In this document: in pieces, positions 1 to 56,029 of the stretch
Numbering within the stretch: position 1 is the first letter of the stretch
How the letters are laid out: every line of letters begins with the position of its first letter
Source: Barthelona sp. PCE
Lineage: Eukaryota
Length of the DNA stretch: 64,000 bases
Direction of reading: 5' to 3'
Assembly: GCA_040285745.1 (NCBI GenBank)
Contig: JAUFOR010000003.1
Location: forward strand, 744,001 to 808,000
Program-made: the position numbers and the translations under genes
Notes under the pieces: generated by a model
The model's input: only the letters and a program-made list of their open reading frames with translations
Databases searched by the model: none
What the model was told of the DNA's origin: nothing

Positions 1-2038
1 CAAACTGAGTCAGAAACTCACAGTTTTCAACGTCTAAACCTGTTGAAATCTCATCCATGAAGATATAGCGTGGGTTGCCGACAAAACCAGTTGCTGTCGC
101 CAACCTGCGTTTCATTCCACCAGAGTATTCCCCTGCCTTCTTATCTTTGTGCTCTAACAAGTCAACACCATTCAATAAGAATTCTATATGTTCGGGAATG
201 TCCTCCTCTTTCATACCCTTCAACCTACAGTAAAACTGAAGATTTTCGAAACCAGTGAGCTCGTCATAAACACACGCGCGGTTGTCCTGTGGTACGAAGT
301 TAATATCAATGTTTGACTCATCCTGATAAGTCTGCTTTCCAAAATAGATAGATCCTGATGTTATAGAGTTAATACCACAAAGTGACTGAATGAACGTTGT
401 CTTGCCGGCAGCTGATGCACCCAGCAAACCATACACGTGACCAGCCTCAAATACACAACTGATACGATCGTTGGCCGGATCTCCATGTGTAGTGTATTTC
501 TTAGTGACGTCTAAAGCAATAATCTTGTTTTTCAGATCCCCTCTCATGAGGCATTCGATAGCTCTCTCTTTTTGTGCAACAGCAGTCTCGTAATCCACGA
601 CAGAATCTTCGGGAACATAACTAGTAGTGTTAGCAATTGCTATTGACTCCGCAATCGGTTTAACCAATTGTCTGCGTGTCTCTGTGCGGGCAATTAAGTA
701 ACTTAGCACCGATAAGATCGCAGTATTGATGAATAACGCAAAGAAATTTCTGCCGAATCTAGTGTCAAAATCAAAAATACCATTCAGAGACAGAGGATCC
801 TGTTCAACGGATAAGTTCATACCGATTGCCTTCAGACAGCCAAGGATAGACTGTGAGGGAAGTACAAAAAGTGAAAATGCAAACTGATCCTCACCTAAAA
901 ATATAAACCTGATGACATTTGCAATATCACTTGAGATGAAAACCCATATATACGCAAAGAGGGTACCAGTGTTGGTCTTTTTAAAGAATCTGGAAAACAA
1001 ACATGAAACTGCTACTGCATTAATACCCACCATGATGAAAAGTGCAATAAAGACAAAAAACGAAGATTTCATCAAGTAATCAAGACCGTATAGCCAACCT
1101 ATGGCGTATGTGAATAGATATAGGACGAAAGAAAACATAAAAAAGAAAAGTAAAGTAGGCTTGTAATAAGTTTTCAACCCAACAGTCTTTAAGAGCTGTG
1201 TCATTCCCCTCTCCCTTTCGTAAAGCAGTGCGTAAACGATGACTGCGCAGGGGAACTGCAATAGAAAGAGCATGAAACCTGGTAGCGCGGCACGTGACAC
1301 ATCAAGTGAAGTTGTGTAGTTGTGATGAGGAAACTGGCGCATCGTAGGGATAGATATGGGCGGAAGATCCGAAATATACTGCATGTGCAAAGCATGGAAC
1401 ATACCAACTCCCGTGAACAACAGACTTTGCTCATAAGCTTTCTTAAACCGACGATTATATCCTATTGTGATATTTAACTCCTGCTTTTCCTTACTGTATC
1501 CGTAAAATTCAACTGAAGTTTGTATGCTTTGCCATTTATGCCAACCAATCACATCATAAAACCATTTGTTCATCGATAAAGTCGTATCATACTCCGTTGT
1601 GTCAAGATTGCTGACCTTATTCTTGGACAGGTAGTGCGGGAAATCACCCATTAACCCACCAGAATATGTATCGTTGAAGTAGTAAATACTTCCAATTTCA
1701 GATGCGTTTCCTCCGTTATATGCGATAGGAAGATTCCAATAGTCTGCAAACAGAGGCAGCGGTGGCGGGTGCTTATCCTCAAGCTGCAAATCCTGGGTGT
1801 ACTCGTCAGCTAAATTCTGCAAAAAAGGAATCATTGTTAAAAGTAACAAAGGAAGTAAGATTTGGACAACTAAAGATGCTCTCTGGCGTCTTTGGAATAC
1901 CCACAGTTTCCTTAACATTGCAAAAAACTGCCTTTTGTTGTTTGGAGTGAAAGACTCATCCTCTGATTCATTTTTCTTTAGTAAAGGTACTGTGTCACCT
2001 TCATAGCGACGATGTCGCCTGGATCCAAAAAGCCCCAT
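1..2038 (-). CDS. ABCA-subfamily ABC transporter (TMD-NBD; runs off window start)
   Basis: Missing from the ORF track because it has no stop in the window. Manual translation from ATG 2038 gives the ABCA N-terminal motif RQFFAMLRKLWVFQRRQ..VQILLPLLLL, YERERGMTQLLKTVGL, Walker A GLLGASAAGKTT, signature YSGGMKRRL and Walker B ILMDEISTGLD. Frame was checked in several segments, not at every codon. Confidence 0.9.
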   Translation of the reverse strand, partial: MGLFGSRRHRRYEGDTVPLLKKNESEDESFTPNNKRQFFAMLRKLWVFQRRQRASLVVQILLPLLLLTMIPFLQNLADEYTQDLQLEDKHPPPLPLFADYWNLPIAYNGGNASEIGSIYYFNDTYSGGLMGDFPHYLSKNKVSNLDTTEYDTTLSMNKWFYDVIGWHKWQSIQTSVEFYGYSKEKQELNITIGYNRRFKKAYEQSLLFTGVGMFHALHMQYISDLPPISIPTMRQFPHHNYTTSLDVSRAALPGFMLFLLQFPCAVIVYALLYERERGMTQLLKTVGLKTYYKPTLLFFFMFSFVLYLFTYAIGWLYGLDYLMKSSFFVFIALFIMVGINAVAVSCLFSRFFKKTNTGTLFAYIWVFISSDIANVIRFIFLGEDQFAFSLFVLPSQSILGCLKAIGMNLSVEQDPLSLNGIFDFDTRFGRNFFALFINTAILSVLSYLIARTETRRQLVKPIAESIAIANTTSYVPEDSVVDYETAVAQKERAIECLMRGDLKNKIIALDVTKKYTTHGDPANDRISCVFEAGHVYGLLGASAAGKTTFIQSLCGINSITSGSIYFGKQTYQDESNIDINFVPQDNRACVYDELTGFENLQFYCRLKGMKEEDIPEHIEFLLNGVDLLEHKDKKAGEYSGGMKRRLATATGFVGNPRYIFMDEISTGLDVENCEFLTQF

Positions 2039-3623
2039 GGAAAAAAGTATGCTCAAAGAGTTGAAAAGGCTGCTAAAAAAATTTTACACCTCTTACATGA
2101 GCATTCCTGCTGCAATTGAGTTGGGGCCCCTTAGGCAGGCGCTCGAGGAAGATGTTCCAGGGCTGTGTGACACTCCTACTGCAACAGCCTCTCTGCATGA
2201 AGGCCCTATTGAGCTTCGCAGTTTAGTTGTTCCATTGCTAAACGTTCATCAGTGCGAATACCTAATGCACAATTCAGATATCAGATTCATGTTTGATTTT
2301 GGTGTACGTTATTATTTTTCAAGAAATCAATTTGGTGGTAAATGGAAGAAATTTCATTCAAAAGAAGAGCTAATTGAGCTGCAGAACGAGTTTTCTGATA
2401 AGCTTAATTCATACCCCAAGGAAGCACCACTTTTTCTACTTGTAAGTCATTTCCATGAAGATCACATTGGTTATCTCCGTGAAGCTGTTGTTCAATGCTT
2501 CTTCCCGCTGTACCAAGATCTTTTGTTCATTGTAGAAGAGGCAGAACGATCATGCTTATCAGAAGAAAGCGGATTGGAAGACATATCGGCTATTGACCCT
2601 CAATCATTCCTGATGGACTGTTTCAGGGACGCTGAGTGCATCGAGCAGTTGAAAAACATCTTGCTAAAGAACCTGAAGTTCGAGATATCAATACACGCAT
2701 CTAATCAGTATCCACCATCGTTTGTCCTGAGTCTTCTCAAAGAAATGATGAGGAAGAACATTAGGAGATCGACACGCGAGCGCTTTGAGAAGTGTGTGCA
2801 GCTTATCCGCAGTCACCCCCATAGGATGTACATGAGGTGCATGTCGCAACCTCATGTAGACTGGAAGAATTTTTTCTCGGAGGAGGAGGGGTATGTGTTC
2901 TGCACAACAAACACCGCATCAAGCGATTCAGTTCGAGTGATCATTCCTTCAAGCCCTATTCTCCCTTATGACATTTCTCTTTTTCTACCTCCGTATGTTA
3001 AGCCACGATCAAGGGATATCAACGATAACTCCCTGATGGCAGACATTGTTTCTTCCCAAGCTAGTGTTTTGCTCACATTTGATGCGACTCCTAAAGTATT
3101 TAAGCCATTTATTCCAAAAAGTAATGAGTCATATGTGCAAAAGGAGAGAAACTGTCTCCGAAGTCACTACGATCTTATATTTTGGCCTCACCACGGTTCA
3201 GATCGCACAGATTTCTCTGTTGTATTAAAGGTTGTTGAGTGTTACAATTTTATTGTACGTTCTGGTTTTCATGCTAATCTTAGAAGTCCGCAGAAGCATT
3301 TTATCGATCGGAAAAAGGTTGTTCTGACTCAGATTAAGGATGGAATCACAGAGAGACTAAATTTAACTCCTAACTCAATACCTGTTAGAGCAAATATTGT
3401 GTTTTTAAACTGTCCAGATGACCATAAATACGTTGAAACTTTCGATGATTCTTCAGTTTTTATTGAAGTGCATGAAGTCAAAAATGCACAAGAATTCCAT
3501 CATTTTAATTACACAGTAACACATAATAAGGTTGTACTTACCCATGGTGATGAAGAAATCATCATGTCCGATGATGTGGATATTGATTCGTGTCAATGTT
3601 GTTCGATGTGCAACTTACTGTAA
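2037..3623 (+). CDS. ComEC/Rec2-like metallo-beta-lactamase-fold hydrolase (true start possibly ATG 2097)
   Basis: Motifs in ComEC order: LLNVHQCEYLM (~LDVGQGD), MFDFG, VSHFHEDHIG (HxHxDH), NDNSLM..VLLTFD (~NNNS..FTGD), DLIFWPHHGS, IVRSGFHANLRSP (~ISVG..N.YGHP). Confidence 0.75.
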   Translation: MEKSMLKELKRLLKKFYTSYMSIPAAIELGPLRQALEEDVPGLCDTPTATASLHEGPIELRSLVVPLLNVHQCEYLMHNSDIRFMFDFGVRYYFSRNQFGGKWKKFHSKEELIELQNEFSDKLNSYPKEAPLFLLVSHFHEDHIGYLREAVVQCFFPLYQDLLFIVEEAERSCLSEESGLEDISAIDPQSFLMDCFRDAECIEQLKNILLKNLKFEISIHASNQYPPSFVLSLLKEMMRKNIRRSTRERFEKCVQLIRSHPHRMYMRCMSQPHVDWKNFFSEEEGYVFCTTNTASSDSVRVIIPSSPILPYDISLFLPPYVKPRSRDINDNSLMADIVSSQASVLLTFDATPKVFKPFIPKSNESYVQKERNCLRSHYDLIFWPHHGSDRTDFSVVLKVVECYNFIVRSGFHANLRSPQKHFIDRKKVVLTQIKDGITERLNLTPNSIPVRANIVFLNCPDDHKYVETFDDSSVFIEVHEVKNAQEFHHFNYTVTHNKVVLTHGDEEIIMSDDVDIDSCQCCSMCNLL

Positions 3624-3636
3624 CTCTTCTTATTTA

Positions 3637-6372
3637 TTATCCATAGTTATCAATGTTAAACAGTAGGTTCATATAGTCATAAATACCACGCAAACGCTCG
3701 CAGTCAGAAAAAGTAAACCCGTTTATGAGTGGTTCAATTGAATCGGTGAATGTTTTCAAATTCTTTTTTGTTGATACCAAAAATTGTTTGTTTTTGGCTT
3801 TGTTGCTCTGCTCATCCAATATTTCCGCTATTAGACCGTTACAGCAGTACAAAATACCCTGTCTCATGGGATTAAGATCTTCCTTTGCTCTGATGCTATC
3901 AAAATATGCATAGTACTCACTCATATCATTCAAAATACTCCTACCCATCACAATTCGGTCCGAGTCATCGTCACAGTATAGAGATCGCACCAAAATAGCT
4001 ATGAGAAGCAAAATCCACTCATAAAAGGAACCATCGACTGTTTTCAAATTCGAAAGTAAATCAAAAACAATTCTTAGAATTGGAGTAGGGTCACCACTAT
4101 CGCTCAACACACCCGTTAGAAACAGTGGCAATGCGTTCATGATTTGCAAAGTGTAAGGTGCAAATGCAACATTAAGCAACATTGCACCCTGCTGTTGAAT
4201 GACGATATCGTTGGGGTTGATAAGCCAATAAAAGAGGATGCATGATAAGATCTCCTCCATATTAAAGGCTTGACTGAAAATCTCAACATCATCAGCTGTC
4301 ACTCCTAGTTTATCAAACCATGGCAGTTGGATGTTTGCAATTAAAAGACAGAACCCTTTGAACATCTCAGTGGTGTATTCCTCATGTAGTTCGTTGCTGT
4401 CTACACAATTCCATAACAGTGAAGTGAGAGAGTGCTCTATTTCAGTAAGCAGTACAGAATCCTCTTCTTCGCTTTCATCCTCGCTTTCATTCTGTGGAGA
4501 TGTATAAGAGAAGATATCCGTCAGACCAAAGGTTTCCACACATGTTTCGATGAAATAAATCCCCTTACTGAGCAACAAATCAAGGACTGTCCTAAAAAGC
4601 AAGCACTTCAGCTCTTCGTCGGGGCTGTAGTTCAAAATAAACTGTGTAAAAGGATGCCTATCGGTAACAAACCCACCTCTTGATTCAATAAATGTAATAA
4701 AAACCTTCAAACATGCATTTTGTAATCCTGATGACAGGTACCCAATGGAAGAAAGATTATTACACGTTCGCATGAAGTAATACATATCGTCATTTGAAAT
4801 GAGCGGGATTTCCAGAAAGGCCTGGGTAATCTCTTGCTCCCTCTCTCTCGCCTCATTGATGCATATCTGCAAGTGTGTGGAATAGTGGTACATGAACTGC
4901 AGATCCCCACGGATAACATCTACGAAATCAACAGATCTAGCAGTGGTTATTAAATTACAAAACAACTTATCAAGGATATCGTCAGAGACCGTGTCTCTCA
5001 TGTCCCAGTCCACAAAGTCTCGAGAAAGTGGGCGTAAAAGATTCTCTATGATAATTGAGCGATGATACTCGTCCTCAGCAAAAACGCCACGTTTGTTAAC
5101 TTCTGAAAGAATAGCTGAAAGGGAGTTAATCAGAAAAGAGAAGTGGGATTCCTTAACGAATTTAGTCGATACAAACAAGAGTTCGCTGAATACAAACGGT
5201 GATGGTGTTAATGCAGTGAACTGTTGATCCGTAAAACAGGAACAAACGGCACTGAGAAGATATACAGACCTGATATCTGTCAAGAAACCATAACAGTTGT
5301 CACGTATTGTGGATAACAGCTTCTCTCTTTTAATGTTCATGTTCTTCGCAATTTCATTAACTTCCTGTTGTCGATCAGGCATTTCTGCAATGATGTTCTC
5401 ATTCTCTTTCACAAAAACGTAAATATTTTCAGGTAAGAAACTTGTTGACTCCATCGCAACGATTTTTAAAAATTCTGTTAAAATATCTATATCTGCTTTG
5501 CTTAATCTCTCCAATTCGATTTTATCAATGATACTGAGAACGATATCGTCAGAAATATGATGACTTATCCAAATGCTGAGCTGATCCTTAACTAGTTCTC
5601 GATCACTTTCCTCATTCAGATTCATAAGGCTACGTATTATCCATAGGATCTCCTGTGCGGGTATGTCCACGTTCGAAAGCAAATCAACAAGAACGGGTAT
5701 TATGTCAGAACGAACAGCTTTGTTATCTAAAAGTGTTATAAAAACACTAATAATCTTTATATGTAATTCCTCACTCTCTATCAACAGTTGAGGATCAATG
5801 AATATTTCTTTCAGAGACTTAAATGCCGCCTTACATATCTTTTCGTTGCTTCCATCATGGACTATCAAAGACAATAAAGAGTTGATCACTTCAACTGAAA
5901 CAACCAGATGCGTACATGTTTCCACTGCTAAAAGACGAATTGTCTGCAGCTTATCGTTGAGGAGCGATACCATGGCTGCGTTAAGCTCATCGAATAACTG
6001 TGTGTCGACAGGGAACTTTGCGAAAAAATTGCTTAGAAAAACTTCTTTAATAATACTAATACAGAATACTCTTTTCTTTGTGTCTGGAAGAAAGAGGAGC
6101 CTCAAAAATGACTCAAAAATTAGCTCAACGTATTCAATATTGAATAAATGCAGAGTTCCAACAATTGCGCTTACAAAATTGGTGCGCAATGGTTTTCTAA
6201 ATGAGTCTGACTGACCCACGAGTGCCATAAGACACTGATTGTACCGCGTATATGTATCATCATCGTCATTATCAACAGAAATTAAGCACTTGTGAATATA
6301 TTTCGACAGCTCCTGATAAAGCATTGCGGAAGCCCCATGTTCCTCAAATATACGCAGAAAAACCTCTGGCAT
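3637..6372 (-). CDS. NCAPG: Condensin subunit CAP-G/Ycg1-like HEAT-repeat protein
   Basis: 911 aa helical protein. LLNDKLQTIRLLAV and LIVHDGSNEKICKAAF resemble CAP-G HEAT motifs. LFRTVLDLLLSKG resembles the Cnd3 domain. Confidence 0.65.
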   Translation of the reverse strand: MPEVFLRIFEEHGASAMLYQELSKYIHKCLISVDNDDDDTYTRYNQCLMALVGQSDSFRKPLRTNFVSAIVGTLHLFNIEYVELIFESFLRLLFLPDTKKRVFCISIIKEVFLSNFFAKFPVDTQLFDELNAAMVSLLNDKLQTIRLLAVETCTHLVVSVEVINSLLSLIVHDGSNEKICKAAFKSLKEIFIDPQLLIESEELHIKIISVFITLLDNKAVRSDIIPVLVDLLSNVDIPAQEILWIIRSLMNLNEESDRELVKDQLSIWISHHISDDIVLSIIDKIELERLSKADIDILTEFLKIVAMESTSFLPENIYVFVKENENIIAEMPDRQQEVNEIAKNMNIKREKLLSTIRDNCYGFLTDIRSVYLLSAVCSCFTDQQFTALTPSPFVFSELLFVSTKFVKESHFSFLINSLSAILSEVNKRGVFAEDEYHRSIIIENLLRPLSRDFVDWDMRDTVSDDILDKLFCNLITTARSVDFVDVIRGDLQFMYHYSTHLQICINEAREREQEITQAFLEIPLISNDDMYYFMRTCNNLSSIGYLSSGLQNACLKVFITFIESRGGFVTDRHPFTQFILNYSPDEELKCLLFRTVLDLLLSKGIYFIETCVETFGLTDIFSYTSPQNESEDESEEEDSVLLTEIEHSLTSLLWNCVDSNELHEEYTTEMFKGFCLLIANIQLPWFDKLGVTADDVEIFSQAFNMEEILSCILFYWLINPNDIVIQQQGAMLLNVAFAPYTLQIMNALPLFLTGVLSDSGDPTPILRIVFDLLSNLKTVDGSFYEWILLLIAILVRSLYCDDDSDRIVMGRSILNDMSEYYAYFDSIRAKEDLNPMRQGILYCCNGLIAEILDEQSNKAKNKQFLVSTKKNLKTFTDSIEPLINGFTFSDCERLRGIYDYMNLLFNIDNYG

Positions 6373-6431: not shown

Positions 6432-7580
6432 TTATAATCCATCAAAGAATCCTTTAGGGAATCGGAAATTCGACATTTCAAATCTGCTACGATTAGGAAA
6501 TTGTTGTAACATTTCTCTCCTAAAAGCTTCACGAGCTTCTCTGGCACCATCTTTTTCTGGATCGATGAAATCATTTAGATTGTAGAAAGGCTGAGGCCAT
6601 TTCTTAATTAATTCATGTAAAGCTTGTTGATCTTCATAATTAGTTATATGTTTAAACCAATTCATAGTATTATGACTCATTAAAGGTTTACGACAAACAT
6701 CGCTCAATAATATCTGTGCGTGAATAGCAAAATAATCAGGGTCAAATTGATAAGGTTGTCTAAAACGTTGACCTAATAATTCTTTTGAAAGACAAGTAGA
6801 ATTCATCAAATGCTTCATTAAATCTCGATGGAAAACACGTGGGGTGTGCGCAAGAATATAACTACCATGATGGTTAACGGTATCTTCAGGATCAAACATG
6901 TTAAATACTTCATCATAAGTGGTCATCATAGACATCCAATGTTCATTACTTTCATCACGATGATATAATCTTTTTCTAAAAACTGTCATCATACCTTCAT
7001 CTGCTATAAAATCCTTTAAAGTAACACCATCCTTAAAAAATAAATCATCATTCATGTAAATATAAACTTCACTTAATCCTGGGATATCTGGAATAGTAGC
7101 CTCTATAGGCCTGGAATTAAAGGTGGGTAATTGTTGTTTGGGGTTTGGGAAAACGTCTTCATGGAAAACTATCCTCAAATCCGGATGAGACGTATTCAAC
7201 CAATAAGGTACTTGACCGTTTGTGTAAAGAACAACATTTCTTCCAAAATCAATGTGTTCTTCAATGCTCCTGAGAGAGAAGAATAGCTCGAAGTTATCAG
7301 AATATTGGAAAGAACTGGGTTCTGAACCACTATACTTACCATACTCTTTAAGGAAATTGGGGTCGGAGCCATTAACCCATGTGTAGACGAAATCAACTTT
7401 CTCTGTGTTCTTGATCTCTCTCATCAGATCTTCATTGACGAATGCTGGACATTCAGCCCGCTTTATCCCAATAAATTTATCTTCTCTGTGTTCACCGAAA
7501 AGATCTGTTACCAGAGGAGAAAATAGGACGAAGATTGATAGGACAACAATAATTTTTTGTTTCTGAGATGAATTGTTCAT
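6432..7580 (-). CDS. Stealth-family hexose-1-phosphate transferase (paralog 1)
   Basis: CR1 VDFVYTWVNGSDP, CR2 ELFFSLRSIE..LPTFNSRPIE..YMNDDLFF, CR3 HTPRVF, CR4 FYNLND; N-terminal TM anchor. Confidence 0.92.
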   Translation of the reverse strand: MNNSSQKQKIIVVLSIFVLFSPLVTDLFGEHREDKFIGIKRAECPAFVNEDLMREIKNTEKVDFVYTWVNGSDPNFLKEYGKYSGSEPSSFQYSDNFELFFSLRSIEEHIDFGRNVVLYTNGQVPYWLNTSHPDLRIVFHEDVFPNPKQQLPTFNSRPIEATIPDIPGLSEVYIYMNDDLFFKDGVTLKDFIADEGMMTVFRKRLYHRDESNEHWMSMMTTYDEVFNMFDPEDTVNHHGSYILAHTPRVFHRDLMKHLMNSTCLSKELLGQRFRQPYQFDPDYFAIHAQILLSDVCRKPLMSHNTMNWFKHITNYEDQQALHELIKKWPQPFYNLNDFIDPEKDGAREAREAFRREMLQQFPNRSRFEMSNFRFPKGFFDGL

Positions 7581-12728: not shown

Positions 12729-13673
12729 ATGGTCACAGAAGTTTCTGAAACCGTAGGCTTTATTGGCGTGCTTATGTCAATAATATTTTTTGGGTCGTTT
12801 GGAATTTTCCTCAAAGCTCCTATTTGCGAAAGTTTATCACCACATCCTATTGAATACCAAATATACTATTGTGTTGCAGTTGCAATCGTAGGTATTCCTT
12901 TTGCTTTTATTGGAGGTGATATTACCTTTTCAATTTATCCCCTTATTGGTGCATGTTTATGGGTTCCTTCCAGTCTACTTGCGCTCTTTGCTATTCGTAA
13001 CGCTGGCCTGGGGCCCGGACAAGGTGTTTGGAGTGGTGTAACCATTATCGTCTCTGTGATGTGGGGTGTTTTCTACTACGATGAAGAAATCAAATCTCCG
13101 TCGTTATTTATCATTGCTCTCATTGCCATGCTGGCTGCTCTTGTCGTTGCTGCATTCGCAGGTGCACCTGTTGAAGAAGATGATGATGGTACTGAAATGG
13201 AAATTCGCTCTTCTTTCGCAGAAAACAAGAAGAAACCTTCCTTCGCAAAGGGAATGATTGCTTCTGTCGGCCTTGGTCTGCTTAACGGTTCTCTCATGGC
13301 TCCTTTAAAGGCAAGCAACATGGACGCTTTTGTTTATACTTTTGAATTCTCAAGCTACTCTTTGCTCGTTATTCTTGTTATATATTTAATCATGCACAAG
13401 AGAATTGCCCTTAACACAAAGTTTATCTTCAAATATGGTGTCTTATCTGGATTGTTTTGGGCTCTTGGCAACTTTGGCTCCATCATCGCCAGTATTTCTC
13501 CTCTAGGCATGTCAGTTGGCTTCCCTCTAACACAGGCTGCTCTTGTAATTGGTGGTCTATGGGCTATTTACTATTTCAAGGAGATAACTCAAAAGAAAAA
13601 GATTGCAATCTTCCTGCTTGCTTCTTTAACTGTTGTAGGAACAGCCTACCTCTTCAGTATCGCTAAGGCTTAG
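12729..13673 (+). CDS. DMT-superfamily transporter, TMEM144/sugar-transporter-like
   Basis: 10-TM pattern with IFFGSFGIFLK, AIRNAGLGPGQGVW, SGLFWALGN and GMSVGFPLTQ. ATG 12729 avoids overlap with the divergent gene. Confidence 0.85.
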   Translation: MVTEVSETVGFIGVLMSIIFFGSFGIFLKAPICESLSPHPIEYQIYYCVAVAIVGIPFAFIGGDITFSIYPLIGACLWVPSSLLALFAIRNAGLGPGQGVWSGVTIIVSVMWGVFYYDEEIKSPSLFIIALIAMLAALVVAAFAGAPVEEDDDGTEMEIRSSFAENKKKPSFAKGMIASVGLGLLNGSLMAPLKASNMDAFVYTFEFSSYSLLVILVIYLIMHKRIALNTKFIFKYGVLSGLFWALGNFGSIIASISPLGMSVGFPLTQAALVIGGLWAIYYFKEITQKKKIAIFLLASLTVVGTAYLFSIAKA

Positions 13674-15541
13674 TCAAAACGAATAAAACCCGTTAATAAA
13701 AGTGTTTGTTCTTCGTCTACAAAGTAGTGATCCCTTGTATACTCTTGTGTTTGATTGTAATGCCGTGTAAGATGATATATACGGCCGAAATTGAGCTCCT
13801 GGCTGCTTTTGTCTGCAATCCAGGTTATTTGACCAAAGATTCTATTCTCAAGCTCTACTGATATAAAACCTTTTCCAAAATAAACGTATAAAACCCTGAA
13901 TTGAACAAACCTGAGCTCGTTTTGGGCTGCTCGGATTGCTGTCATGTATTGAACAGCCTGTTTATGTGGAAAAAATAAACTTCTGGTCATCTGACTCACT
14001 CTGCCAATTGGGAAATTCAAATCACTGCTATTTACCCACCACCCGGGTGGCACATTGCCTATAGCATCAGCCCATGATGTTTTAAACGGACGTCCTACAG
14101 AAAATGAAGAATTGAAAATCATAGGATAAGGAACTGGGGCACCAGTAATAAGATTAAAATACTCAAAGTTGGGATTCAAAAGCAATAAATCCTTCCAATC
14201 AAGGCGATACGTCACTGGATCCTCAACCTCAACGAAATTTAAATGAATGAAAGCCGCAGCCTCCATCAAAGTATTACCATGACGTGCAACAATCATATCA
14301 GCATTCATAGCCACATCATCCTCAACAACATCAACTGTAACAAGGCGTTCCTTTGAGTAAGAACCTATAACAGGTTTGACTGCAGCAAAATTACTTCCTA
14401 ATCTATTAATAATTGCCCTGCATCCTTCGAGACTTTCGTTGAAAATTGTCTCGTGGCCTTCTCTGTTCACAAGACGGTTTGCTAAAAAGTCATAATCATT
14501 ACATTTAAAGTGAATATGGGTGAAAAAGTGACTCTTATCTCTTAAAAACCGGGAATACATTGATCTGCTATGTTTCGATACATGACATCCATCAATGCAT
14601 ATTAGTACGTTACCCGGTAGTTCTACAGCGCACTCTACGATGCGGTTGAGTGCTATACCTACCAATCCTTGTACTGAATTAACATCTATACTGAATTTTT
14701 CACTAAAATGACTCGCAAGCTGATCCCTGCTGATATAAACAAGTGTCATGTCTATCTTGTTGTGCAAAACTTGATGCAACTGCTGCAAAAAAGTGGACTT
14801 GCCTGTTCCTGGCAAACCACTCGCAATTATTATACCAATCTTGCAAAACTCCCGCTGAAGAATGGTTGGTGCCTGTAAAGGATGTGTTAAAGCGGAATTA
14901 AAGAGTGCATCAAATATTACAAAATTTAATCTCAATGGAAACAGTTTTAAAAACTTTAACATCCTCTTTTGTGCAAAGGCAGTATGGCTTGGTTTTCCTG
15001 CTATAGTTTTTATACATTCAGGATTAGTGAGGATAAAATTTTGTAATTGTTCTAAAGTGAATGCCTTTGCATTTTGTTCTGTTCCGAACCAAAGAACAGT
15101 GTCCATTGTTATCGTGCTGGTATCTTTAGGAGTTAAATCACGGAAACCAGGACCAGTAGTGTATGAATTTAACCCTTCACAAATAAAATCGACTGTTTTT
15201 TTGGAGAAACTATAATGTGAGACCTTAAAAAATGTTGTAGAGCTCGTTATGTTTGCGAAAAAGAATCCTCTATCCTTCTCCAAATGCATATGCATTAACT
15301 CAATAATTTCTTCGTCAAGAAGGTCAGATGCTTGGTAACTTGCTGTGTCATCAGCCACACATAGCTCATTGTTCCCCTCAAAATACCCAATAAGATGGCT
15401 ACACTCAAGAAACTCTCCAAACCCAACACCTAAAAATTTTTTTTCCGTTAGAAGCTCCCAACAGTTTGCTTCCGGTGTGCCTTTCTCCCCATATAACTGT
15501 TCAAACGCGTTGAAAGTTGCAGCATCAGGAAAATTTGACAT
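13670..15541 (-). CDS. P-loop kinase-domain protein (AAA_33/Trl1 polynucleotide-kinase-like)
   Basis: Walker A SGLPGTGKST, YISRD, Walker-B-like ICIDGCH, lid RLVNREGHETI. Flanking domains not recognised. Confidence 0.6.
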   Translation of the reverse strand: MSNFPDAATFNAFEQLYGEKGTPEANCWELLTEKKFLGVGFGEFLECSHLIGYFEGNNELCVADDTASYQASDLLDEEIIELMHMHLEKDRGFFFANITSSTTFFKVSHYSFSKKTVDFICEGLNSYTTGPGFRDLTPKDTSTITMDTVLWFGTEQNAKAFTLEQLQNFILTNPECIKTIAGKPSHTAFAQKRMLKFLKLFPLRLNFVIFDALFNSALTHPLQAPTILQREFCKIGIIIASGLPGTGKSTFLQQLHQVLHNKIDMTLVYISRDQLASHFSEKFSIDVNSVQGLVGIALNRIVECAVELPGNVLICIDGCHVSKHSRSMYSRFLRDKSHFFTHIHFKCNDYDFLANRLVNREGHETIFNESLEGCRAIINRLGSNFAAVKPVIGSYSKERLVTVDVVEDDVAMNADMIVARHGNTLMEAAAFIHLNFVEVEDPVTYRLDWKDLLLLNPNFEYFNLITGAPVPYPMIFNSSFSVGRPFKTSWADAIGNVPPGWWVNSSDLNFPIGRVSQMTRSLFFPHKQAVQYMTAIRAAQNELRFVQFRVLYVYFGKGFISVELENRIFGQITWIADKSSQELNFGRIYHLTRHYNQTQEYTRDHYFVDEEQTLLLTGFIRFD

Positions 15542-16910: not shown

Positions 16911-18518
16911 TTACATGTTATTATCAACCCCAATATCATTGGTTTCAATATTAGGCTCTAATTCAACAACTACCCTTTCCACCAATATCATATCATTTAA
17001 AACTGATGAAGCTACTTTTTCTTTTTTAGCAGGTTTTGCACTTCTCCAACGGCAACTCTTATACACTCTATCAATAAGAAAAGCTAAAGGAAAAGCTAAA
17101 AATGACAGCAATAAATACAAACTAATAAAACAACCGATAGCAAGTGGAGATGTTGTCAAAACAAGATTTTCAGTATACGGCCATAATGTAAACTGTGACA
17201 ATACTGTTCCATTTGAATCCCAAGGTACACCATGAAAACTACCATTAACAAAGAGTGTTTGAATAGAATAAACATAAAGAGACATAGATCCCATATATAA
17301 AAACATCTTTGTGCTGCCAATTTTCCCCATTATCGGAAATAATTTGGGAAAAAGAATCAAAACAAATAATATGCCCGCATAACACAAAGTAATATGTATT
17401 GTGGAAAGTGCATATTCCCATTCAAAGCCGGGTGCACTTGTTGTTTTTGTGAATGCCCATGAAAAAAGCGGTATCCATTTAAAAAAAATTAAATAATACA
17501 ACAGAAGTTCAAAAAATCCCAATACAAGATATTTTCCAGGCTTCCATTTCAATGCATTATTAAATCTACTAATAAGTACCCTTTTAATTGAATAAACCGT
17601 CTTTGTTTTCGAAACAATGTCGATTATTATCATTATAATGAAAAATATTGCTAATACTGGCACGTATGTAGATGGTCTGCTGTATACATCCATCCTAAAT
17701 ACCCAATTAGGTCTTCCTATCTCGCTGTGGTTGAACCTATTGACTGTTCTCAATTTTGTATGATAAGAAAAGAAGAATAATGCAAATATTGAAAAAGCTA
17801 ACAGATATAACTTCAAAAAAAAGCGTTTACCACCTTCATTTCGAACAGTTTTACGAACAATTATTGTAAATAACTTCATTGCATACATAAATAATGGAAT
17901 AAACAATAAGAATAAAGAAAGATCTACCTCCAAATACCATAAAACAGTGTACATGGGATAATTTGTTCTGACATTAGGGAAATCAATCATTCGGAAACAG
18001 AAATCCGAAATCCAGGGAATGGAAGAAAAAACACAAAATTCCCGGAAACCTGACATCGACAAAATCTTTGGAATAAACTGATCCCATGTAAAATCCCATG
18101 CCTTCTCTCTGTTATCGTAATTGTATCTCAGTATAAATTGTAACAATAAAATCCACCATAATCGTAATAATCGATTGTAGAATGTTCCCAACCATGTTCT
18201 CCAAGAATATGTAAATTTTCCCTCAAAATAGTTTTTAAGCGATCTCTTCAAGGCCAAATAAAAGGTCAGCAACATAAATCCAACGAGAGAACTCCATAAT
18301 GCCCGACAGACTAATTGTTGTGCATCCTTCATCCCATCACTCCAAGAGGAGTCCAACTTATCACATATCACTTGCTCATGCACTTCAAGGATCAAAAACG
18401 AACAAACTACTCGAAAAAAGTTTAGATGTGGATTAAACGACTTAGATTTTCCTGCAGCAGTAGTAAATCCCGTAAAATCTGTCGAAAGTATCTTATCGGC
18501 CCTACTTTTAAACCCCAT
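16911..18518 (-). CDS. Acyltransferase family 3 (OafA/NRF-6-like) membrane O-acyltransferase
   Basis: HLNFFRVVCSFLILEVH (~LDGLR..H), FYNRLLRLW, LWYLEVDLSLFLL (~LWYL.VE), GSMSLYVYSIQ; multi-TM. Confidence 0.8.
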   Translation of the reverse strand: MGFKSRADKILSTDFTGFTTAAGKSKSFNPHLNFFRVVCSFLILEVHEQVICDKLDSSWSDGMKDAQQLVCRALWSSLVGFMLLTFYLALKRSLKNYFEGKFTYSWRTWLGTFYNRLLRLWWILLLQFILRYNYDNREKAWDFTWDQFIPKILSMSGFREFCVFSSIPWISDFCFRMIDFPNVRTNYPMYTVLWYLEVDLSLFLLFIPLFMYAMKLFTIIVRKTVRNEGGKRFFLKLYLLAFSIFALFFFSYHTKLRTVNRFNHSEIGRPNWVFRMDVYSRPSTYVPVLAIFFIIMIIIDIVSKTKTVYSIKRVLISRFNNALKWKPGKYLVLGFFELLLYYLIFFKWIPLFSWAFTKTTSAPGFEWEYALSTIHITLCYAGILFVLILFPKLFPIMGKIGSTKMFLYMGSMSLYVYSIQTLFVNGSFHGVPWDSNGTVLSQFTLWPYTENLVLTTSPLAIGCFISLYLLLSFLAFPLAFLIDRVYKSCRWRSAKPAKKEKVASSVLNDMILVERVVVELEPNIETNDIGVDNNM

Positions 18519-26105: not shown

Positions 26106-27215
26106 ATGGGCATTACAAAACAGCATGTTTTTCACATGCTAACCATTATAATTTGTCTGGGTGTACAAGTAAGGTTGAAATACACACTCTGCCCCAATTT
26201 CTTTGAAAAAGAACATGTAGTCAAAGATTTCACCCCAAAGAAGGTAGATGTGTTATACACCTGGGTAAATGGAAGCGATCCTGACTTCGTAAGGGATTAT
26301 AGACAGTTTGTAGATCCCGCTTTCACATATAACTCCAACAGATACAATGACAACTTTGAACTACTATTTTCGCTGCGCTCACTTGATATGTACATGCCTT
26401 TTGTGAACAATATCATTCTTTACACAAACGGACAAATCCCACATTGGTTAAACACCTCCATTCCAAATTTAAAAGTGATTTTCCACAAGGATGTGTTCCC
26501 TGAACCGGAATCGCAGCTCCCTACTTTCAATTCAAGACCTATAGAAGCTTCCATGTTCGACATAGAAGATTTAAGTGATATTTTTGTGTATATGAATGAT
26601 GATGTTTTTTTAAAGGGCCCTATGCACATCACAGACTATGTTTCGAAGAATTCCGGACCTATATTCTATCATACAGGCTTTCAGTACAGCATGCACACTA
26701 AAGTAGAACACCGACAAACTTTAAAGTTCACTTTTGAAAGTGTTTGTCCAGCATTTGAACCAAACGCGCGCAAGAACACACCTTTCAAACATTACATATT
26801 GACACATGCACACAGAACCTTCCACAAAAAGCTTTCCAAACAACTTTTAGAAATGACTCCCTTGGCGCAAGATTTACTGAACCATAGAGTAAGAACTGTC
26901 AAGCAGCTGGATCCTATCCACTATTTATATCACGCAAATCAGTTTATTTCCAAGTTTTGTGGAACAAATGTGATTGAGGAACGAAGAGTGGGTAACTACT
27001 ATGGTTTAAAGAACTTTGACACAAGAGAACATCTGCAAAAGGTAATTGATAGGTGGCCCATCAACTCTTACAATATCAATGATAATATCATTGATGGTAA
27101 ACCTGGTGCCATGGCAGGTAGATATGCTTTTCGTGAAGAGATGATTAGAAGATATCCTAATCCTTCTAAATTTGAGCGTGAAGACTGGTATTTACCTTCC
27201 GAATTTCTTCAATAG
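26106..27215 (+). CDS. Stealth-family hexose-1-phosphate transferase (paralog 2)
   Basis: VDVLYTWVNGSDP, ELLFSLRSL, LPTFNSRPIE, YMNDDVF, YNIND, YPNPSKFE. Confidence 0.92.
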   Translation: MGITKQHVFHMLTIIICLGVQVRLKYTLCPNFFEKEHVVKDFTPKKVDVLYTWVNGSDPDFVRDYRQFVDPAFTYNSNRYNDNFELLFSLRSLDMYMPFVNNIILYTNGQIPHWLNTSIPNLKVIFHKDVFPEPESQLPTFNSRPIEASMFDIEDLSDIFVYMNDDVFLKGPMHITDYVSKNSGPIFYHTGFQYSMHTKVEHRQTLKFTFESVCPAFEPNARKNTPFKHYILTHAHRTFHKKLSKQLLEMTPLAQDLLNHRVRTVKQLDPIHYLYHANQFISKFCGTNVIEERRVGNYYGLKNFDTREHLQKVIDRWPINSYNINDNIIDGKPGAMAGRYAFREEMIRRYPNPSKFEREDWYLPSEFLQ

Positions 27216-54727: not shown

Positions 54728-56029
54728 ATGGAATCTACAGATAAATTTTCACACGTAAAGGAACAGCGTGACTTCGCGACGCTGGAGGTACTCCAAGTCA
54801 AGAACGTTAATCAGCTTTCAAGTCCACAAACATACGCTCCTGCAGGTTTCACAGATACCCAGACCATTCAGGAAATCGCCGATAACGTTGAGTTCATCTT
54901 TTCAGAGAACTCTATATCGGAAGATAAGACCACAATGACTTTCGATTGTAAGAATCTTCCAGTTGAATTTGCCAATGCTTTCCGTCGCATTATGATCGCA
55001 GAGGTCCCCACCATGGCTATCGATAGGGTTTTGGTTGCTCAGAACACATCAGTTATGCAGGATGAAGTTTTGGCACACCGTCTGGGTCTTATTCCCATTA
55101 TTTTACACGACTATGACCTCGCAAAGTTCGAGCAGTTGGATGATCTTGACATCCTTGAGGTCGACGATCACCCACCAACTGATGATCCAATTGAGGAGCC
55201 TGAAGTCACCCTCAAGTTTGAATTAGAGGTCATTTGCACTGAATACACACCAGAGGAGCGCGAAAACATCACCTTGAACGAGTATCAGAAGACACAGAAG
55301 TCACTCCAATACAAGGATGGTATCATCTTCTCCAGTCAGCTGCGATGGATTCCTATAGAGGGACAGGAGGATGATTTCGTTCAACAGAGATACGAGTACA
55401 ACATTAATAATCACAGTTTTGACAGGCTAGAGATCGATGAAGAGGATCATGGTAAGACTATTATTGAAATTCCTCCAGATATTCCCATTCTCAAGTTACG
55501 TCCTGGTAACTGTGTTGCTCTTGATCTTTTTGCCTATAAGGGAGTTGGTAAGATTCACACAAAGTGGAGCCCTGTGTGCCCCGCCGCTTACCGTCTCATG
55601 CCTCGTATTCTTGTTAAGGAAGATGCTGATATTTCCAGTGATGAAGTCGATGCTATTGTTGACAAGTGCAAGCAAAATATTTTTGTGGCAAAGAACGGGC
55701 GTCTCGTTGTCGATGAGGAGCAGATGAGGTTCTGTACTTCATGTCGTGAATGCATTAGGTTAGCTCCAGAGAGCATCATTCTGCAGAAAGACAAGAACCA
55801 CTACATCTATTCGATTGAGACAGTTGGCCAACTCGAATGCGCTGAGATATTCAAGCAGTCCATTGGTGTGCTGAAGGAGAAGGCCAGTGTATTGAAGGAT
55901 CGTCTCTCCAATATTATTGACGGTACTCCAGAAGATGAAGAAGAAGAAACGGAATACTCAAATAGAGAGTATTCGAGCAGGGAATATTCCTCCAGAGAGA
56001 ATTACAGTGATGGTGAGGAAGATGTCTAA
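54728..56029 (+). CDS. POLR1C: RNA polymerase I/III shared subunit AC40
   Basis: FANAFRRIMIAEVPTMAI, QNTSVMQDEVLAHRLGLIP, GKIHTKWSPV..YRLMP, CTSCRECIR. Confidence 0.96.
   Translation: MESTDKFSHVKEQRDFATLEVLQVKNVNQLSSPQTYAPAGFTDTQTIQEIADNVEFIFSENSISEDKTTMTFDCKNLPVEFANAFRRIMIAEVPTMAIDRVLVAQNTSVMQDEVLAHRLGLIPIILHDYDLAKFEQLDDLDILEVDDHPPTDDPIEEPEVTLKFELEVICTEYTPEERENITLNEYQKTQKSLQYKDGIIFSSQLRWIPIEGQEDDFVQQRYEYNINNHSFDRLEIDEEDHGKTIIEIPPDIPILKLRPGNCVALDLFAYKGVGKIHTKWSPVCPAAYRLMPRILVKEDADISSDEVDAIVDKCKQNIFVAKNGRLVVDEEQMRFCTSCRECIRLAPESIILQKDKNHYIYSIETVGQLECAEIFKQSIGVLKEKASVLKDRLSNIIDGTPEDEEEETEYSNREYSSREYSSRENYSDGEEDV

Follow-up and report, generated by a model that had tools for sequence, protein, structure and literature searches.

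A divergent ComEC/Pce-clade metallo-beta-lactamase-fold protein with a predicted lipid anchor in the eukaryote Barthelona sp. PCE

What is a metallo-beta-lactamase (MBL)-fold protein of bacterial ComEC/Rec2 type doing among the genes of a eukaryote? The question is raised by an open reading frame (ORF) of Barthelona sp. PCE, located in a stretch of 64,000 nucleotides (positions 744,001 to 808,000 of contig JAUFOR010000003.1, assembly GCA_040285745.1) that was analysed as a whole and is called the window below. A first-pass annotation, made from the letters alone, took its product for a laterally acquired nuclease or phosphoesterase. ComEC-type MBL domains are known in two roles, as the DNA-uptake nuclease of bacteria and as anti-phage DNases. 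We find that the product, hereafter the MBL protein, belongs to the ComEC/Pce clade of MBL-fold hydrolases, where it is highly divergent; it would work like the nuclease domain of ComEC and yet is no ComEC. New with respect to the first-pass annotation are a CaaX box, formed by the final CNLL-stop, and a comparison with protease-gated MBL nucleases. The gene and its parts are as follows, residues being numbered from the first Met:

2037..3623 (+): ORF of 528 amino acids (probably 508, from Met21), stand-alone ComEC/Pce-clade MBL-fold hydrolase
2241..2303 (+): N-terminal strands, NVHQ (69-72) and DFG (87-89), corresponding to DVGQGD and DxG of ComEC-type domains
2448..2465 (+): HFHEDH (H138, H140, D142, H143), metal-binding motif corresponding to H598/D600/D602/H603 of Moorella ComEC
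2490..3020 (+): residues 152-328, core strands and a helix with about 110 additional, mostly helical residues in between
3021..3083 (+): NDNS (329-332) and TFD (347-349), D349 corresponding to the metal ligand D700
3186..3200 (+): PHHGS (384-388), H385 and S388 corresponding to the putative DNA-contact residues H725 and S728
3279..3290 (+): LRSP (415-418) where GHP is usual, the His being lost
3549..3623 (+): acidic low-confidence tail ending in SCQCCSMCNLL-stop, with a CaaL box (C525) and the upstream C519, C521 and C522

All the ComEC-type motifs are present and in the order first described: NVHQ at residue 69, DFG at 87, HFHEDH at 138, NDNS at 329, TFD at 347, PHHGS at 384 and CQCCSMC at 519. 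From the alignment with the nuclease domain of Moorella glycerini ComEC (9ic4) and the available text of PMC12455585, H598/D600/D602/H603/D700/H725/S728 of the latter correspond to H138/H140/D142/H143/D349/H385/S388. The same text reports that mutants of the equivalent residues lose nuclease activity or show it reduced, most metal-ligand mutants being near-inactive. All seven are thus kept save D600, which is replaced by H140; a His at this second HxHxDH site is the state of Pce in the part of PMC5031224 at hand, and it is also found in 58 of 176 relatives. The 120-row alignment of the clade shows two invariant positions, D87 and D349, on which no selection had been made, while H138, D142, H143, H385 and H386 are invariant in rows that were selected on these very residues. 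The Gly of TGD is changed. To judge from its sequence, the MBL protein is very probably catalytically active.

Assignment to the clade rests on several lines of evidence. A hidden Markov model of 135 prokaryotic and phage ComEC-clade MBL domains, gathered from plasmids, genomes and phages, gives the MBL protein 42.4 bits, while the highest score of 500 shuffles, run with two sub-profiles, was 2.8 bits. The sub-profiles give 36.5 bits for stand-alone domains (86 sequences), 22.2 for ComEC-fused domains (31), 20.3 for long forms (18) and 37.1 for ungated forms (117). With PADLOC, the C-terminal half matches RTasMBL (E 4.9e-8) and LmuA (E 7.2e-6), and these are the sole family-library matches: none was obtained in Pfam (best E 0.16), NCBIfam, PHROGs or the PDB sequences. 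In the ESM Atlas, the search by features leads to bacterial stand-alone MBL clusters (0.95); the Atlas's own model matches ComEC/Rec2-family clusters with TM scores of 0.43-0.46 by query and, for the stand-alone rows, up to 0.70 by target, all rows listed being bacterial. That model is independent of the ComEC-clade alignment, and the Atlas feature and model results count as a single source of evidence. An AlphaFold2 model built from the 120-row alignment (mean confidence, pLDDT, 67.5) has 9ic4 as its best structural match (Z 19.0, 252/266 residues, root-mean-square deviation 3.6, 15% identity), and the other Z scores are 17.9 for Pce, 15.1 for RNase J, 11.8 for ELAC1 and 11.5 for CPSF73. In the Foldseek comparison that had been suggested as a check, only Pce, ranked first, and 9ic4 fall under E 0.001; the BFVD search gave two unnamed matches with E < 0.001.

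The protein thus shows what defines the MBL-fold superfamily, i.e. the alpha-beta/beta-alpha fold, HxHxDH, a bridging Asp and a late His, and, with 42 bits on the clade profile and higher Z scores for 9ic4 and Pce than for RNase J, what defines the ComEC/Pce clade. As the first-pass annotation had it, the subtype is ComEC-like: beta-CASP, RNase Z and glyoxalase II proteins are not the best match (see CPSF73 and ELAC1 above), and neither the MBL protein nor 9ic4 has a beta-CASP domain. It also stands alone, as was claimed. There is no Competence channel or OB domain in the ORF, TIGR00361 is without match in the genome, and the second site of the HxDxDH motif of ComEC/Rec2 proper carries H140. 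The protein further differs from 9ic4 by the lost GHP His, its roughly 110 extra residues, the CNLL tail and the eukaryotic host.

At the C-terminus the first description has to be amended. The Cys cluster CQCCSMC is present, but it does not end the protein, which continues into CNLL-stop, a CaaX box with a Cys fourth from the end, an aliphatic a2 and Leu at X, as is typical of substrates of geranylgeranyltransferase type I (GGTase-I). This enzyme tolerates variation at a1 and recognises a2X (PMC11304957, in the portion available; CNLL itself is absent from the main text). The genome holds 29 small-GTPase loci, and among the 27 C-termini seen 7 are CaaX, of which 5 are C-x-L-L and 2 exactly CNLL, the latter belonging to a Rho-like (L235) and a Ras-like (L242) protein, family labels being assigned by reading; other CaaL ends of host GTPases are CALL and CDLL. 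Most Rab-like GTPases (L218-L243) end in CxC, one of them (L231) in CALL, and the DnaJ-type protein of the window ends in CNIQ. Two proteins without Pfam match, L261 (G000:C2:1092091) and L264 (G000:C2:2005754), combine an acidic stretch, two or three Cys and NLL at their end; they are unrelated to the MBL protein and are not paralogues of it. What L235, L242, L261 and L264 share with the MBL protein is an acidic or polar linker followed by CNLL-stop, on unrelated bodies, prenylation being presumed for all five. CNLL may be the preferred CaaL signal of this organism. Three prenyltransferase beta genes score above the cut-off, of which L215 is closest to GGTase-I beta (E 3e-38 vs 4e-21 for the next type) and L216 is ambiguous. 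A terminal C-x-[VIL]-L has a composition-based probability of 5e-4, and no CxxL end occurs among the 173 prokaryotic or phage relatives whose stop is visible. Among the first 30 of 56 pattern matches in the genome, 4 of 13 exact CNLL-stop matches close ORFs of at least 165 amino acids, L261 and L264 among them, vs 0 of 11 variants with a stop; the pattern as a whole (CN[LF][LF]-stop-or-Trp) shows no excess (56 vs 54 for the control), as expected from a six-frame count.

A lipid anchor is therefore quite likely on these predictions, and the MBL protein is probably geranylgeranylated, because its CNLL end equals host GTPase ends and the genome encodes a GGTase-I beta. Cysteines upstream of the CaaX box are known as palmitoylation sites in Ras-family proteins. 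No signal peptide was seen by eye, no dedicated prediction having been made. A CaaX anchor would put the protein on the cytosolic face of a membrane, and the active site would therefore be cytosolic; for this reason the degradation of prey DNA in the vacuole lumen, one of the roles first suggested, is disfavoured.

Our preferred reading, which we hold only tentatively, is that of a geranylgeranylated two-metal phosphodiesterase acting as a DNase on the cytosolic membrane face. A host gene of prokaryotic ancestry would encode an active ComEC/Pce-clade enzyme that hydrolyses phosphodiesters with two metals; C525 in CNLL would be modified by the GGTase-I of the host, with C519, C521 and C522 perhaps palmitoylated, and the enzyme would be located at the plasma membrane, or at endosomes and food vacuoles. 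There, H138/H140/D142/H143/D349/H386 would bind two metals and a bridging hydroxide would attack the phosphodiester gripped by H385/S388, the substrate being DNA that enters the cytosol at membranes, whether leaked from prey or of viral or plasmid origin. In place of the DNA-binding or regulating domains that ComEC has, the MBL protein would use its helical additions. In the available parts of the relevant reports, the characterised members of the clade, Pce excepted, are DNases: the ComEC domain, HamM, Avs1a and CanC (PMC12455585; PMC12799240; PMC12642450; bioRxiv 10.1101/2025.09.03.673762; PMC5031224). The case for DNA as substrate is evenly poised.

Several observations weigh against this reading. 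Structurally Pce comes near-equal to ComEC, ranking first with Foldseek, and shares the His at 140; moreover, the AlphaFold2 model is driven by the ComEC-clade alignment, so that its structural matches are not independent of the profile score. The GHP His, kept in 154 of the 176 relatives, is Ser in the MBL protein, and no test of the role of this His was found in a literature search. As for the anchor, the CNLL motif was spotted post hoc, its enrichment at the ends of long ORFs is non-significant (p 0.10, or 0.22 if the MBL gene is excluded), and 36 of the 173 relatives have a Cys-rich end or a Cys at -4, mostly PCxxCxP-like, so that the tail could be the remnant of a metal site.

The long insertion noticed at the outset is confirmed by a spacing of 191 residues between HxHxDH and NxxS, compared with 68-108 in ComEC-fused and most stand-alone domains and 136-202 in the long forms. 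AlphaFold2 models the extra part mostly as helices, at low confidence (pLDDT < 50 at 208-225, 263-283 and 312-320). In the 120-row alignment, 62 extra residues (152-213) follow the HxHxDH helix, about 25 lie at 221-246, and a loop of 24 residues precedes NxxS; the main block, 152-213, is acidic (13 D/E, 4 K/R). An alignment with a group of Butyrivibrio-type proteins gives a different register, where YPP (225-227) pairs with LWPP and about 100 residues are placed before NxxS. The register matters because the ComEC-like MBL pro-nucleases of anti-phage systems are gated by two inserted loops, which block them until a partner protease cuts; as far as the consulted portions of these papers go, their gates are disordered loops in which the cut sites are conserved (PMC12799240; PMC12642450; bioRxiv 10.1101/2025.09.03.673762).

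Where does the gene come from? A phmmer search of 1.84 billion representatives revealed no sequence relative at any length beyond the MBL protein itself, two repetitive proteins in its output being rejected as spurious. Word-index searches, whether the query was the full sequence or residues 310-430, likewise returned only the MBL protein, and no candidate from viral, genome or metagenome contigs could be confirmed as a relative. As far as single-sequence searches reach, this absence argues against a broad eukaryotic family. With tblastn on plasmids and phages only matches of E 0.3-9 were obtained, some of them ComEC-like MBLs that served as seeds; Methylibium and phage matches were rejected. 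Weak matches occurred in 9 of 802 Bacteroidota and Bacillota genomes, 4 of them being MBLs. The best N-terminal look-alike, picked out of these 802 genomes, is the Butyrivibrio-type group of five clusters (P0006-P0010, including a Butyrivibrio protein), present in 1 of 401 Bacillota genomes and absent from the viral and metagenome contigs searched; hhalign pairs it with the MBL protein at 82% over residues 75-162. Both have a DFG-R loop and HFHxDH, lack the GHP His and carry helical inserts and a Cys cluster, which in the group lies at another position and without CaaX. At one locus (L212:9664-14061, G735) a rare stand-alone MBL of this type, which combines helical inserts with a Cys cluster, has a large helicase-like gene as its tail-to-tail neighbour, possibly as part of a defence locus.

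Trees were computed from subsets of the 120 rows over 238 core columns, with no other eukaryotic sequence. The Butyrivibrio-type group is sister to the MBL protein in three of them, with support falling from 98/83 (LG+G4, 64 rows) to 81/55 (mixture model, 28 rows), as a long-branch join; without the group (38 rows) the MBL protein is unplaced, and its branch is the longest in every tree. Of the lateral acquisition first proposed, the prokaryotic origin is retained as the simplest reading, because all recovered relatives are prokaryotic or phage; donor and date are not, given the long branch and the drop in support. An older gain may have been followed by loss from most eukaryotes. At the level of titles, a literature search found no eukaryotic or prenylated ComEC-type MBL, but supplementary trees of the gated pro-nucleases could contain eukaryotic members.

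The ORF looks like a settled host gene. The description of an intronless gene among eukaryotic genes was correct: there is no internal stop and no intron is required, and the window, on a contig of 1.59 Mb in a genome of 10.2 Mb and 8 contigs, is gene-dense and intron-poor, with ABCA, Rab, DnaJ-type and other eukaryotic genes. G+C content at third codon positions is 0.39 (0.42 +/- 0.08 for 34 other ORFs of the window), and the codon score is mid-range. The paralogue count that had been asked for gave a single copy (protein search and two PADLOC profiles). The 7 Lactamase_B (PF00753) matches in the genome are all at other loci; the five that were translated are, we presume, glyoxalase II-type, beta-CASP and RNase Z proteins, and one match (L008, G000:C8:1032804) lies within an open frame of 1856 amino acids. 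The flanking genes are:

2..2038 (-): left neighbour, ABCA-type transporter (Pfam ABC_tran and ABC2_membrane_3), head to head with the MBL gene
3637..6372 (-): right neighbour, ORF of 911 amino acids, tail to tail with a 13-bp gap

Of the two neighbours first named, the ABCA-like one is upheld by these domains, and CAP-G has no Pfam support. The 13-bp gap resembles most tail-to-tail gaps in the window. At bases 2036-2039 the first ATG of the ORF overlaps that of the ABCA gene on the reverse strand; residue 21, moreover, is where the public record of the protein begins, so that Met21 (2097), giving 508 amino acids, is probably the likelier start. Taking first Met codons, 10 of the 13 head-to-head pairs in the window are spaced by 178-639 bp and 3, the MBL-ABCA pair included, overlap. 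Two pairs share their first ATGs in CATG (2036-2039 and 54728-54729), and the real starts of such pairs probably lie downstream. Elsewhere in the window we noted two Stealth-type (CR1/CR2) proteins (6432-7580, minus strand, Pfam-supported; 26106-27215, plus strand, alike by eye), a protein of 623 amino acids with a central P-loop kinase-like domain (13670-15541, minus strand; weak AAA_33 match) and a multi-pass membrane protein of 535 amino acids that by eye resembles a bacterial-type acyltransferase (16911-18518, minus strand).

Other explanations have to be set against the anchored DNase. The same anchored enzyme could be a Pce-like phosphoesterase, acting at the membrane on phosphocholine or other head groups, or on cyclic nucleotides. 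The second-site His and the structural rank of Pce, an acidic surface, the lack of a DNA-binding domain and a lipid anchor that would suit lipid or signalling substrates all agree with this; however, sequence and feature matches point to ComEC-like and defence MBLs, the His is not peculiar to Pce, and Pce (CbpE, teichoic acid phosphorylcholine esterase; 1wra, 2bib) is secreted and choline-bound, whereas the MBL protein has no visible choline-binding repeats, no sign of secretion and a CaaX box at its end. On balance we find this possible but unlikely. Less probable still is a protease-gated pro-nuclease derived from anti-phage MBL effectors, in which the inserts would cover the active site until cleavage by a host protease frees the DNase for defence or cell death. 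Like HamM, Avs1a and CanC, the MBL protein belongs to the clade, stands alone and has long insertions between HxHxDH and NxxS, with a spacing within the long class; its only library matches are defence MBLs, its main insert is acidic, the YPP/LWPP alignment places about 100 residues where the gating loop would be, and one tree puts it on the long-form side (98/93). But that placement is unstable, the long-form profile scores lower than the ungated one (20 vs 37 bits), and the 120-row alignment sites the largest insert elsewhere, with only 24 residues before NxxS. The inserts are also modelled as helices, in contrast to the disordered published gates, and there is no adjacent partner protease or sensor: no protease family was matched among neighbours within 16 kb, a linkage that is not expected in a eukaryote. 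We give correspondingly little credence to its fuller form, a domesticated anti-phage pro-nuclease shut by its inserts, tethered by geranylgeranyl and set free, on entry of foreign DNA or a virus, through cleavage by a protease of the host.

It may also be asked whether the tail is an anchor at all. A soluble enzyme whose Cys cluster is a metal site, or what is left of the CxxC with which stand-alone bacterial relatives end, would account for C522-x-x-C525, for the PCxxCxP-like ends of many relatives and for the cluster of the Butyrivibrio-type group. Yet the modelled core stops at about residue 510, leaving no space for a zinc-finger domain before C519, the tail is acidic and of low confidence, and the last four residues are identical to host GTPase ends; we regard this as highly improbable. 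That the gene is decaying or catalytically dead, or is a contaminant or misassembly, seems to us hardly credible: the longest branch and the altered GHP His and TGD Gly would fit, but the frame is open over 528 codons, the metal ligands are retained, codon use and third-position composition are host-like, the C-terminal signal is of host type, and eukaryotic genes lie on either side in a long contig.

The weight of the finding is limited to that of one orphan gene, known from sequence and models. If true, a eukaryotic member of this clade with a lipid anchor of the host would show how a transferred enzyme got its cellular location. It would be a candidate for the handling of cytosolic DNA by bacteria-eating protists, and it bears on how frequently foreign genes are taken up. 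Should the domesticated pro-nuclease be the true case, a unicellular eukaryote would possess an effector of immunity or cell death that derives from bacteria.

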